A stretch of DNA of 64,000 nt from assembly GCF_013315695.1 (NCBI RefSeq), contig NZ_CP054353.1; one strand, written 5' to 3'. The translations under genes were made by a program, and so were the position numbers. The notes beneath the pieces are model-generated. The model did not search any database. It was not told the DNA's origin and was given only the letters and a program-made list of their open reading frames with translations. Of the stretch, positions 5,467 to 39,365 are shown in pieces. Position 1 is the stretch's first letter, and each line of letters starts with the position of its first letter. This DNA comes from Escherichia coli. GTDB taxonomy: Bacteria; Pseudomonadota; Gammaproteobacteria; Enterobacterales; Enterobacteriaceae.

Positions 5467-5518
5467 TAGCATGCTTCCAGTTTTCTCAGTCAGAGACTGA
5501 GCGTTAATCGAAATTCGG

Positions 5519-18769: not shown

Positions 18770-19972
18770 ATGTCGAGTAAGTTAGTACTGGTTCTGAACT
18801 GCGGTAGTTCTTCACTGAAATTTGCAATCATCGATGCAGTAAATGGTGAAGAGTACCTTTCTGGTTTAGCCGAATGTTTCCACCTGCCCGAAGCACGTAT
18901 CAAATGGAAAATGGACGGCAATAAACAGGAAGCGGCTTTAGGTGCAGGCGCCGCTCACAGCGAAGCGCTCAACTTTATCGTTAATACTATTCTGGCACAA
19001 AAACCAGAACTGTCTGCGCAGCTGACTGCTATCGGTCACCGTATCGTACACGGCGGCGAAAAGTATACCAGCTCCGTAGTGATCGATGAGTCTGTTATTC
19101 AGGGTATCAAAGATGCAGCTTCTTTTGCACCGCTGCACAACCCGGCTCACCTGATCGGTATCGAAGAAGCTCTGAAATCTTTCCCACAGCTGAAAGACAA
19201 AAACGTTGCTGTATTTGACACCGCGTTCCACCAGACTATGCCGGAAGAGTCTTACCTCTACGCCCTGCCGTACAACCTGTACAAAGAGCACGGCATCCGT
19301 CGTTACGGCGCGCACGGCACCAGCCACTTCTATGTAACCCAGGAAGCGGCAAAAATGCTGAACAAACCGGTAGAAGAACTGAACATCATCACCTGCCACC
19401 TGGGCAACGGTGGTTCCGTTTCTGCTATCCGCAACGGTAAATGCGTTGACACCTCTATGGGCCTGACCCCGCTGGAAGGTCTGGTCATGGGTACCCGTTC
19501 TGGTGATATCGATCCGGCGATCATCTTCCACCTGCACGACACCCTGGGCATGAGCGTTGACGCAATCAACAAACTGCTGACCAAAGAGTCTGGCCTGCTG
19601 GGTCTGACCGAAGTGACCAGCGACTGCCGCTATGTTGAAGACAACTACGCGACGAAAGAAGACGCGAAGCGCGCAATGGACGTTTACTGCCACCGCCTGG
19701 CGAAATACATCGGTGCCTACACTGCGCTGATGGATGGTCGTCTGGACGCTGTTGTATTCACCGGTGGTATCGGTGAAAATGCCGCGATGGTTCGTGAACT
19801 GTCTCTGGGCAAACTGGGCGTGCTGGGCTTTGAAGTTGATCATGAACGCAACCTGGCTGCACGTTTCGGCAAATCTGGTTTCATCAACAAAGAAGGTACC
19901 CGTCCTGCGGTGGTTATCCCAACCAACGAAGAACTGGTTATCGCGCAAGACGCGAGCCGCCTGACTGCCTGA
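18770..19972 (+). CDS. ackA: Acetate kinase
   Basis: 400-aa [35 protein letters not shown]...; strongly biased codon usage. Confidence 0.97.
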
Positions 19973-19979
19973 TTTCACA

Positions 19980-20009
19980 CCGCCAGCTCAGCTGGCGGTG
20001 CTGTTTTGT
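19980..20009 (+). terminator. ackA-pta intergenic hairpin (partial terminator/attenuator)
   Basis: CCGCCAGC-tca-GCTGGCGG followed by tgctgtttt, 8 nt after ackA stop. Confidence 0.5.
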
Positions 20010-20046
20010 AACCCGCCAAATCGGCGGTAACGAAAGAGGATAAACC

Positions 20047-22191
20047 GTGTCCCGTATTATTATGCTGATCCCTACCGGAACCAGCGTCGGTCTGACCAGC
20101 GTCAGCCTTGGCGTGATCCGTGCAATGGAACGCAAAGGCGTTCGTCTGAGCGTTTTCAAACCTATCGCTCAGCCGCGTACCGGTGGCGATGCGCCCGATC
20201 AGACTACGACTATCGTGCGTGCGAACTCTTCCACCACGACGGCCGCTGAACCGCTGAAAATGAGCTACGTTGAAGGTCTGCTTTCCAGCAATCAGAAAGA
20301 TGTGCTGATGGAAGAGATCGTCGCGAACTACCACGCTAACACCAAAGACGCTGAAGTCGTTCTGGTTGAAGGTCTGGTCCCGACACGTAAACACCAGTTT
20401 GCCCAGTCTCTGAACTACGAAATCGCTAAAACGCTGAATGCGGAAATCGTCTTCGTTATGTCTCAGGGCACTGATACTCCGGAACAGTTGAAAGAGCGTA
20501 TCGAACTGACTCGCAACAGCTTCGGCGGTGCAAAAAACACCAATATTACCGGCGTTATCGTTAACAAACTGAACGCTCCGGTTGATGAGCAGGGTCGTAC
20601 CCGTCCGGATCTGTCCGAGATTTTTGACGACTCCACCAAAGCAAAAGTGAACAACGTTGATCCGGCGAAGCTGCAAGAATCCAGCCCGCTGCCGGTTCTC
20701 GGCGCTGTGCCGTGGAGCTTTGACCTGATCGCGACTCGTGCGATCGATATGGCTCGCCACCTGAATGCGACCATCATCAACGAAGGCGACATCAATACTC
20801 GCCGCGTTAAATCCGTCACTTTCTGCGCACGCAGCATTCCGCACATGCTGGAGCACTTCCGTGCCGGTTCTCTGCTGGTGACTTCCGCAGACCGCCCTGA
20901 CGTGCTGGTTGCCGCTTGCCTGGCTGCCATGAACGGCGTAGAAATCAGTGCCCTGCTGCTGACTGGCGGCTACGAAATGGACGCGCGCATTTCTAAACTG
21001 TGCGAACGTGCTTTCGCTACTGGCCTGCCGGTATTTATGGTGAACACCAACACCTGGCAGACCTCTCTGAGCCTGCAGAGCTTCAACCTGGAAGTTCCGG
21101 TTGACGATCATGAGCGTATCGAGAAAGTTCAGGAATACGTGGCTAACTACATCAACGCTGACTGGATCGATTCTCTGACTGCCACTTCTGAGCGCAGCCG
21201 TCGTCTGTCTCCGCCAGCGTTCCGTTATCAGCTGACTGAACTTGCGCGCAAAGCGGGCAAACGTATCGTTCTGCCGGAAGGTGACGAACCGCGTACCGTT
21301 AAAGCAGCCGCTATCTGTGCTGAACGTGGTATCGCAACTTGCGTACTGCTGGGTAATCCGGCAGAGATCAACCGTGTTGCAGCCTCTCAGGGTGTAGAAC
21401 TGGGTGCAGGCATTGAAATCGTTGATCCAGAAGTGGTTCGCGAAAACTATGTTGGTCGTCTGGTCGAACTGCGTAAGAACAAAGGCATGACCGAAACCGT
21501 TGCCCGCGAACAGCTGGAAGACAACGTGGTTCTCGGTACGCTGATGCTGGAACAAGATGAAGTTGATGGTCTGGTTTCCGGTGCTGTTCACACCACCGCA
21601 AACACCATCCGTCCGCCGCTGCAGCTGATCAAAACTGCACCGGGCAGCTCCCTGGTATCTTCCGTGTTCTTCATGCTGTTGCCGGAACAGGTTTACGTTT
21701 ACGGTGACTGTGCGATCAACCCGGATCCGACTGCAGAACAGCTGGCAGAAATCGCGATTCAGTCCGCTGATTCCGCTGCGGCCTTCGGTATCGAACCGCG
21801 CGTTGCTATGCTCTCCTACTCCACCGGGACTTCTGGTGCTGGTAGCGACGTAGAAAAAGTTCGCGAAGCAACTCGTCTGGCGCAGGAAAAACGTCCTGAC
21901 CTGATGATCGACGGTCCGCTGCAGTACGACGCTGCGGTAATGGCTGACGTTGCGAAATCCAAAGCACCGAACTCTCCGGTTGCAGGTCGCGCTACCGTGT
22001 TCATCTTCCCGGATCTGAACACCGGTAACACCACCTACAAAGCGGTACAGCGTTCTGCCGATCTGATCTCCATCGGGCCGATGCTGCAGGGTATGCGCAA
22101 GCCGGTTAACGATCTGTCCCGTGGCGCACTGGTTGACGATATCGTCTACACCATCGCGCTGACTGCGATTCAGTCTGCACAGCAGCAGTAA
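20047..22191 (+). CDS. pta: Phosphate acetyltransferase
   Basis: 714-aa ORF with GTG start ([31 protein letters not shown]...); immediately downstream of ackA. Confidence 0.97.
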
Positions 22192-22229
22192 TCTCGTCAT
22201 CATCCGCAGCTTTGCGCTGCGGATATCGG

Positions 22230-22261
22230 AACCGGAAATAGTCACTATTTCCGGTTTTTTA
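22230..22261 (+). terminator. Rho-independent terminator downstream of pta
   Basis: ACCGGAAATAG-tca-CTATTTCCGG followed by TTTTTT; preceded by a second hairpin CCGCAGC...GCTGCGG. Confidence 0.85.
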
Positions 22262-22380
22262 TTCTCTTAATTTGCATTAATCCTTTCTGATTATCTTGCT
22301 TAACTGCGCTGCATCAATGAATTGCGCCATCTCACTTTGCATACTTACCACTTTGTTTTGTGCAAGGGAATATTTGCGCT

Positions 22381-39189: not shown

Positions 39190-39365
<176 letters not shown>

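Follow-up and report, generated by a model that had tools for sequence, protein, structure and literature searches.

A conserved hairpin with an interrupted U tract between ackA and pta of Escherichia coli, a candidate leaky intrinsic terminator

Organization of the ackA-pta locus

The window, the whole 64,000-nucleotide stretch of DNA analysed here, matched the E. coli chromosome with 100% identity. On its + strand, the gene for acetate kinase (ackA, 400 aa, 18770..19972, TGA stop codon at 19970-19972) is followed by the gene for phosphate acetyltransferase (pta, 714 aa, 20047..22191), which starts with GTG. Both genes were delimited by the ORF list and by the RefSeq annotation of identical E. 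coli DNA. The annotation confirmed the flanking genes named in the original prediction, as well as the GTG start of pta at 20047. A 601-base query around the hairpin described below occurred once in each of 5425 out of 5426 complete genomes, at a place annotated as ackA and pta. The intergenic gap is 74 nt long and covers exactly 19973-20046 (MG1655 coordinates are obtained by adding 2,394,700 to window coordinates). From the stop codon of ackA to the start codon of pta, it reads TGA uuuca CACCGCCAGC uca GCUGGCGGUG CUGUUUUGU aac CCGCC aaauc GGCGG uaACGAAAGAGGauaaacc GUG.

A spacer of 5 nt (19973..19977, + strand; 5-21 nt in other species) separates the ackA stop codon from the base of hairpin 1 (19978..20000, + strand). 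Hairpin 1 has a 10-bp stem (CACCGCCAGC/GCUGGCGGUG) with eight G-C pairs, a UCA loop and a folding energy of -18.9 kcal/mol, and is supported by the predicted fold, by conservation and by covariation. In DNA letters, the helix is a perfect 10-bp inverted repeat (CACCGCCAGC/GCTGGCGGTG). A GC stem just after the ackA stop codon had been proposed, with the arms CCGCCAGC (19980-19987) and GCTGGCGG (19991-19998) followed by TGCTGTTTT (19999-20007). These segments lie where they had been placed and the stem is present, but its helix spans 10 bp (19978-20000) and not 8. The stem is followed by an interrupted U tract, CUGUUUUGU (20001..20009, + strand), which contains six U in nine positions and has C, U and G as the first three; the tract is supported by a terminator-like match, its tail score and its conservation. 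The second small hairpin that had been predicted ahead of the pta GTG was likewise found. This hairpin 2 (20013..20027, + strand) consists of the 5-bp stem CCGCC/GGCGG and the loop AAAUC, and is supported by the fold and by covariation in Enterobacteriaceae. The ribosome-binding site and start codon of pta follow (20036..20049, + strand; GAGG at 20036-20039 and GTG at 20047-20049, read from the sequence), and both are conserved in all Enterobacterales. The pta start codon was GTG in all the sampled Enterobacterales (loci L002-L081) except for two Rosenbergiella, which have TTG. Outside this order, it was GTG in Aeromonas and Photobacterium, and ATG in Pasteurellaceae, Vibrio, Shewanella and Gilliamella.

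The 80-nt segment containing these structures had a minimum free energy (MFE) of -35.8 kcal/mol (z = -5.1), a stability that was not reached in any of 200 dinucleotide shuffles. The hairpin motif occurred once in the window, against an expectation of 0, and in a single copy per genome across 5423 complete E. coli genomes. Built on the entire E. coli-type gap, a covariance model matched only this locus, once in the window on the + strand and at 34 Enterobacterales loci with E < 1e-4. Since the element is present in a single copy per genome, it is not a REP-type repeat, and a REP/BIME repeat was ruled out by the window, the 5423 genomes and the covariance model alike. A search of the gap against Rfam returned only sub-threshold matches (NsiR1, 16.8 bits; sucA, 15.8 bits; P9, 15.5 bits), each far below its gathering score, and a scan of the whole window placed no family over the ackA-pta gap.

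Conservation and covariation of the hairpins

A search with AckA in species-representative genomes yielded 80 loci from Enterobacterales, Pasteurellaceae, Vibrionaceae, Aeromonas, Shewanella and Orbaceae. In 78 of them pta lay downstream of ackA, with a gap of 41-215 nt. Among 20 Enterobacteriaceae species the stems of hairpin 1 were invariant: the 19 other species agreed with E. coli at 380 of 380 stem positions. In the same comparison, identity was 67% at four-fold sites of the flanking ackA and pta codons and 16% in the loop of hairpin 1, which varies both in sequence and in length (3-6 nt). The distance from the stop codon to the hairpin is 5 nt in E. coli and 5-10 nt across Enterobacteriaceae. 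The tail, with the consensus YUGUUUUGU, was 96% conserved in this family, and the block from the pre-Shine-Dalgarno (pre-SD) sequence through the SD to the start codon was 94% conserved. Two variant E. coli strains differed in the gap only within loop 1, loop 2 and the stretch that separates the stop codon from hairpin 1, with the stems unchanged.

Beyond the family, 9 of 12 stem pairs showed changes on both sides in an alignment of 32 Enterobacterales. The covariation score was 0.208 versus 0.103 in shuffled alignments (none of 500 reached the observed value), and it was at most 0.10 when the pairing partners were slid. One stem pair passes from C-G through U.G (7 species) to U-A (5 species). 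On the opposite strand, U.G would read as an A-C mismatch, which identifies the + strand RNA as the target of selection. For hairpin 2, all four counted pairs changed on both sides among the 20 Enterobacteriaceae, and this second hairpin was not found outside Enterobacteriaceae in the ackA-pta gaps compared.

Of 77 gammaproteobacterial species, 64 had a hairpin followed by a T run 5-21 nt past the ackA stop codon, whereas shuffled sequences gave an expectation of 0.3. Outside Enterobacterales the stem sequences are unrelated to that of E. coli: AAACUGCCGA/UCGGCAGUUU in Pasteurellaceae, AAGGCCGCCC/GGGCGGCCUU in Aeromonas and ACUGGCUAAC/GUUAGCCAGU in Vibrio. With covariation inside the order and unrelated stems at the same position outside it, what is kept at this site is structure and not sequence, as is expected of an intrinsic terminator.

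The same data bear on the idea that the element works at the DNA level, as a palindrome serving as a protein operator or repeat element, or that it is a chance inverted repeat with no function. The helix is indeed a perfect inverted repeat in the DNA; however, a loop of 3-6 nt would alter the spacing of half-sites, the T.G positions in Serratia, Yersinia and Budvicia (7 species) preserve RNA pairing and break DNA symmetry, and the conservation far exceeds the neutral level. We therefore consider a palindrome or a chance repeat highly improbable. A transcription-factor operator, for which fixed half-site spacing and DNA symmetry are expected, was rejected on the variable spacer (3-6 nt) and the T.G positions.

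No trace of the hairpin was seen in the gaps of a few lineages, namely Yersinia thracica and Rosenbergiella. Their hairpin-less gaps are short (2701-2748 of locus L022 in Y. thracica; about 41 nt in two Rosenbergiella, L046 and L077). Compared with the gap of Yersinia artesiana (L019), that of Y. thracica seems to have lost the stem-loop by a clean deletion, with TTTTGAC kept. Judged by their sequences, these gaps are natural hairpin-deletion variants. Taken over all the loci, the comparison supports a real terminator-like anatomy under very strong purifying selection, and a function in the sense RNA that would fit termination.

Weak tail and possible partial termination

Hairpin 1 has the G+C-rich stem (within about 5-14 bp) and the short loop of an intrinsic terminator. 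It also has the orientation of one, as it begins 5 nt past the stop codon of ackA on the + strand, downstream of the coding sequence. In intrinsic terminators, the stem is immediately followed by about 7-9 nt rich in U; here the tail has U at 6 of 9 positions but starts with C, U and G. Its score was 1.66-1.8 in a TransTermHP-type formula, versus 5.04 for the terminator at the end of the operon, which served as an internal comparison. That canonical, strong intrinsic terminator lies after pta (22228..22264, + strand) and has a 13-14-bp stem followed by UUUUUUAUU. The stabilities of the two stems are comparable (-18.9 kcal/mol for hairpin 1 and -16.9 kcal/mol for the operon-end hairpin). The equivalents of hairpin 1 in Pasteurellaceae, Vibrionaceae and Aeromonas have canonical strong T tracts, and the tails in Pasteurellaceae and Vibrionaceae scored 3.4-5.3. 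In the E. coli element, the hairpin is thus strong but the U tract after it is weak and interrupted, and this weak tract is itself conserved; the combination has the look of a leaky terminator, and the weak tract would fit partial termination. Just past the pta terminator, at MG1655 2416989 (window 22289), a region of Rho-dependent termination is given in the Term-seq supplement of Adams 2021.

We moderately favour the reading that hairpin 1, together with its interrupted U run, is a conserved, leaky intrinsic (Rho-independent) terminator acting on the sense RNA after ackA. RNA polymerase at about 20007-20009, the predicted release zone, would meet a very stable hairpin with a poor U tract, so that only a fraction of the transcripts would end there and the remainder would enter pta. 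A 3′ end at about 20005 had been expected before; because the stem ends at 20000, the canonical position shifts to about 20007-20009. The C, U and G right after the stem are poor for a terminator and count against this reading. To the structure, conservation, covariation, position and weak tail observed here and to the published start sites, we add by inference the formation of 3′ ends in the gap, the efficiency of termination and the effect of ribosomes.

An RNA-stability element would show the same conservation of hairpin and U run as a leaky terminator. In such a processing model, to which we assign a low but appreciable probability, RNase E would cut the bicistronic mRNA in the single-stranded, U-rich linker at 20001-20012. 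Hairpin 1 would then block 3′-to-5′ exonucleases and stabilize the ackA segment, and hairpin 2, near the new 5′ end, would protect the pta segment, giving the two segments independent lifetimes. The gap has the layout for this, with two stable, conserved hairpins on either side of an A/U-rich linker and with covariation in hairpin 2. RNase E prefers R-N-cut-W-U-U, and GU/UUU at 20003-20007 (cut at the slash) would agree with this preference. Independent mRNA segments would also help explain the separate regulation of the two genes by SdhX (PMC6393394, PMC9438474). On the other hand, the Term-seq lists searched contain no processed ends at the gap, and the canonical long T tract of other clades, which have no hairpin 2, points to termination as the ancestral role. 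A role in processing and stability, or in the translation of pta discussed below, could coexist with termination.

Transcripts and 3′ ends at the locus

Three classes of transcripts have been listed by SMRT-Cappable-seq, namely b2296 alone (start 2413305), b2296-b2297 (four starts) and b2297 alone (start 2414486), and the ackA-only, ackA-pta and pta-only classes are each marked as matching a RegulonDB unit (PMC6131387). The ackA-only and ackA-pta transcripts supposed by the original prediction are both among these classes. Where an operon has no defined termination site, however, that data set describes it by its longest read (PMC6131387). The ackA-only entry is accordingly no direct proof of termination, as it may simply record the longest read that began at a minor start site.

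The pta-only start site at MG1655 2414486 (PMC6131387, Supplementary Data 2) corresponds to G19786 of the window, which lies within ackA and upstream of hairpin 1. A candidate promoter read from the sequence precedes it (19752..19786, + strand), with the -35 hexamer TTGTAT at 19752-19757, a 17-nt spacer and the -10 hexamer GAAAAT at 19775-19780. A consensus scan of the + strand detected no promoter in the gap itself. Since the pta-only start is upstream of hairpin 1, the hairpin is also part of the pta leader, 192 nt into a leader of 261 nt, and would act on pta-only transcripts too. This place in the pta leader is a point absent from the earlier, sequence-only description of the locus, in which partial termination was proposed to set the ratio of ackA-only to ackA-pta transcripts. 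The anatomy, the selection and the covariation would fit termination, and the weak tail would fit partial termination. An effect on pta-only transcripts would mean that more than this ratio is affected. A regulated attenuator or riboswitch was considered for the leader and rejected: no antiterminator was found, and hairpin 1 folds as an independent module in the 285-nt leader sequence.

An AUG (Met340 of AckA, an in-frame ackA codon) comes directly after the pta-only start (19786-19789). With the AUG right after G19786, the pta-only transcript is nearly leaderless for a 61-codon frame encoding the C-terminus of AckA, which ends at the ackA stop codon, 5 nt before hairpin 1. Translation of this frame, if it occurs, could bring ribosomes to the putative terminator on the pta-only mRNA as well.

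The Term-seq lists of Adams 2021, including ends up to 200 nt upstream of ORFs, contain no 3′ end at 24146xx-24147xx and no entry for ackA or pta. The 3′ ends anticipated by the original prediction are thus missing from these lists, but the lists also miss the pta operon-end terminator, so the absence of an end in the gap is weak evidence. The SMRT-Cappable-seq TSS-TTS table, which is insensitive, has no row for the ackA-pta locus (PMC6131387). The lack of a mapped 3′ end in these two insensitive sources stands, with that weight, against a leaky terminator. The TERMITe supplements had no match for the gap, and a preprint on the evolution of Vibrio natriegens on acetate reports no mutation within it. 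A literature search for the ackA 3′ UTR found nothing, a text search for the hairpin sequence matched only an unrelated engineering paper, and the literature searched contained no mapping or test of the ackA-pta hairpin. The early ackA and pta sequence papers of Matsuyama in 1989 and Kakuda in 1994 may already mention this inverted repeat.

Ribosome proximity and translation of pta

The distance between the ackA stop codon and the stem suggests a further influence on the putative terminator. In a study of the lambda terminator tR2 (Li et al.), a stop codon 5 bp upstream lowered the efficiency of termination from about 90% to less than 10%; efficiency was restored by removing or uncoupling translation, and full efficiency required about 30 bp (PMC4824070). 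The pyrBI attenuator is cited in the same work among the ribosome-repressed, stop-proximal terminators, for which the stop codon is within about 10-15 nt of the base of the hairpin (PMC4824070). The ackA stop codon of E. coli is within this range, at 5 nt as in the tR2 constructs, so the in vivo efficiency on translated ackA transcripts may be low. The tR2 and pyrBI systems are engineered or leader-peptide systems with measured efficiencies, whereas for ackA-pta it is the spacing that points to such an effect. By this analogy, ribosomes ending ackA probably weaken the hairpin 1 terminator further. If a ribosome completing ackA trailed the polymerase closely, it would mask the 5′ arm of the stem and suppress termination, and with the arm covered, translated transcripts from the ackA promoter would mostly read through. 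The pta-only transcripts would have to pass hairpin 1 too, probably without such protection by ribosomes. Taken together, these effects would make the element a fixed valve, lowering pta transcription compared with that of ackA.

When ackA translation is repressed by the small RNA SdhX, Pta has been reported to stay unchanged (PMC6393394); ackA and pta are separately regulated by SdhX (PMC6393394, PMC9438474). The unchanged level of Pta is weak evidence against strong gating by ribosomes, unless compensation comes from the pta promoter or most of the pta mRNA originates there.

Unchanged Pta under repression of ackA translation (PMC6393394) is also what a second alternative would lead one to expect. 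An A-rich segment, ACGAAAGAG (20030..20038, + strand), lies before and overlaps the SD sequence and is predicted in MFE folds to pair with the U tract at 20001-20009, enclosing hairpin 2. In read-through RNA, this pairing, which reaches as far as the SD, might set the initiation of pta translation independently of ackA translation, with hairpin 1 serving mainly to prevent ribosome coupling. The extended helix was part of the MFE fold in 20 of 20 Enterobacteriaceae sequences despite indels in its 3′ partner, it remains in the fold of the 285-nt pta-only leader, and the 94% conservation of the pre-SD and SD block is in agreement with it. An apparent compensatory shift was seen in one case, in Cedecea and Enterobacter sp. 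Ag1 (GUUUUC/GAAAAC). However, the alignment contains no both-sided changes for this helix, and since its columns are nearly invariant, the alignment says nothing for or against it. Moreover, only 2 of 4 SD bases are paired, in weak terminal pairs, A-rich sequence 5′ of an SD is common for other reasons, and outside Enterobacteriaceae hairpin 1 is retained but the extended helix is missing. Control or insulation of pta translation as the main role of the gap seems to us unlikely.

A combination of both functions can also be conceived, in which the whole 74-nt gap would be a conserved two-state RNA device of Enterobacteriaceae. A ribosome-gated terminator, together with the helix between the U tract and the pta ribosome-binding site in read-through RNA, would then set the AckA:Pta ratio by way of ackA translation. 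We hold this as a speculative extension of low probability. If it were true, acetyl-phosphate levels would follow ackA translation, for example under SdhX, and transcripts from the ackA and pta promoters would be handled differently.

Comparison with known systems

Partial intrinsic terminators within operons are well known, for example the rplL-rpoB attenuator and the rpsU-dnaG T1 terminator of E. coli. Read-through terminators have also been described at prs-dauA and dapA-bamC (PMC6131387). Like these four, the ackA-pta element consists of a stem-loop and a U run between co-transcribed genes, where a fraction of the polymerases would continue and the ratio of upstream to downstream mRNA would be set. 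Unlike them, it has an unusually poor U tract and is known here from sequence, and an internal promoter lies upstream of the hairpin, which places the hairpin in the leader of the downstream gene as well. The position within the 261-nt leader of the pta-only transcript resembles that of leader attenuators and riboswitch expression platforms. Unlike those, hairpin 1 has no alternative pairing, no ligand or protein partner is suggested, and the best Rfam match reached 16.8 bits against a gathering score of 39. Another kind of intercistronic hairpin is represented by the REP elements between malE and malF, which stabilize mRNA. The ackA-pta hairpin, directly past the upstream gene, could likewise block 3′ exonucleases and uncouple the mRNA levels of the neighbouring genes, but unlike the malE-malF REP elements it is single-copy and followed by a U run.

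The two enzymes, AckA and Pta, form and use up acetyl-phosphate, which serves as a global signal and as a donor for protein acetylation, and the AckA:Pta ratio matters for that reason. A fixed leaky terminator, with an internal promoter upstream and a stop codon 5 nt away, would help explain the different levels and separate regulation of the two enzymes. The element is of a textbook kind, an ordinary operon feature, and RegulonDB and SMRT-Cappable-seq already list the three transcript classes. If the reading as a leaky terminator is true, it would add a detail to what is known of a well-studied operon and no new principle.

Elsewhere in the window, two Rfam families exceeded their gathering scores on the - strand, the nuoG RNA motif (RF01748) at 5474-5516 with 50.3 bits and naRNA4 (RF02564) at 39265-39336 with 65.1 bits. 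Two long ORFs run antisense (- strand) to pta and ackA, at 19975-22245 (756 aa) and 18938-19978 (346 aa), and meet over the gap; we presume that they are non-coding shadow frames.
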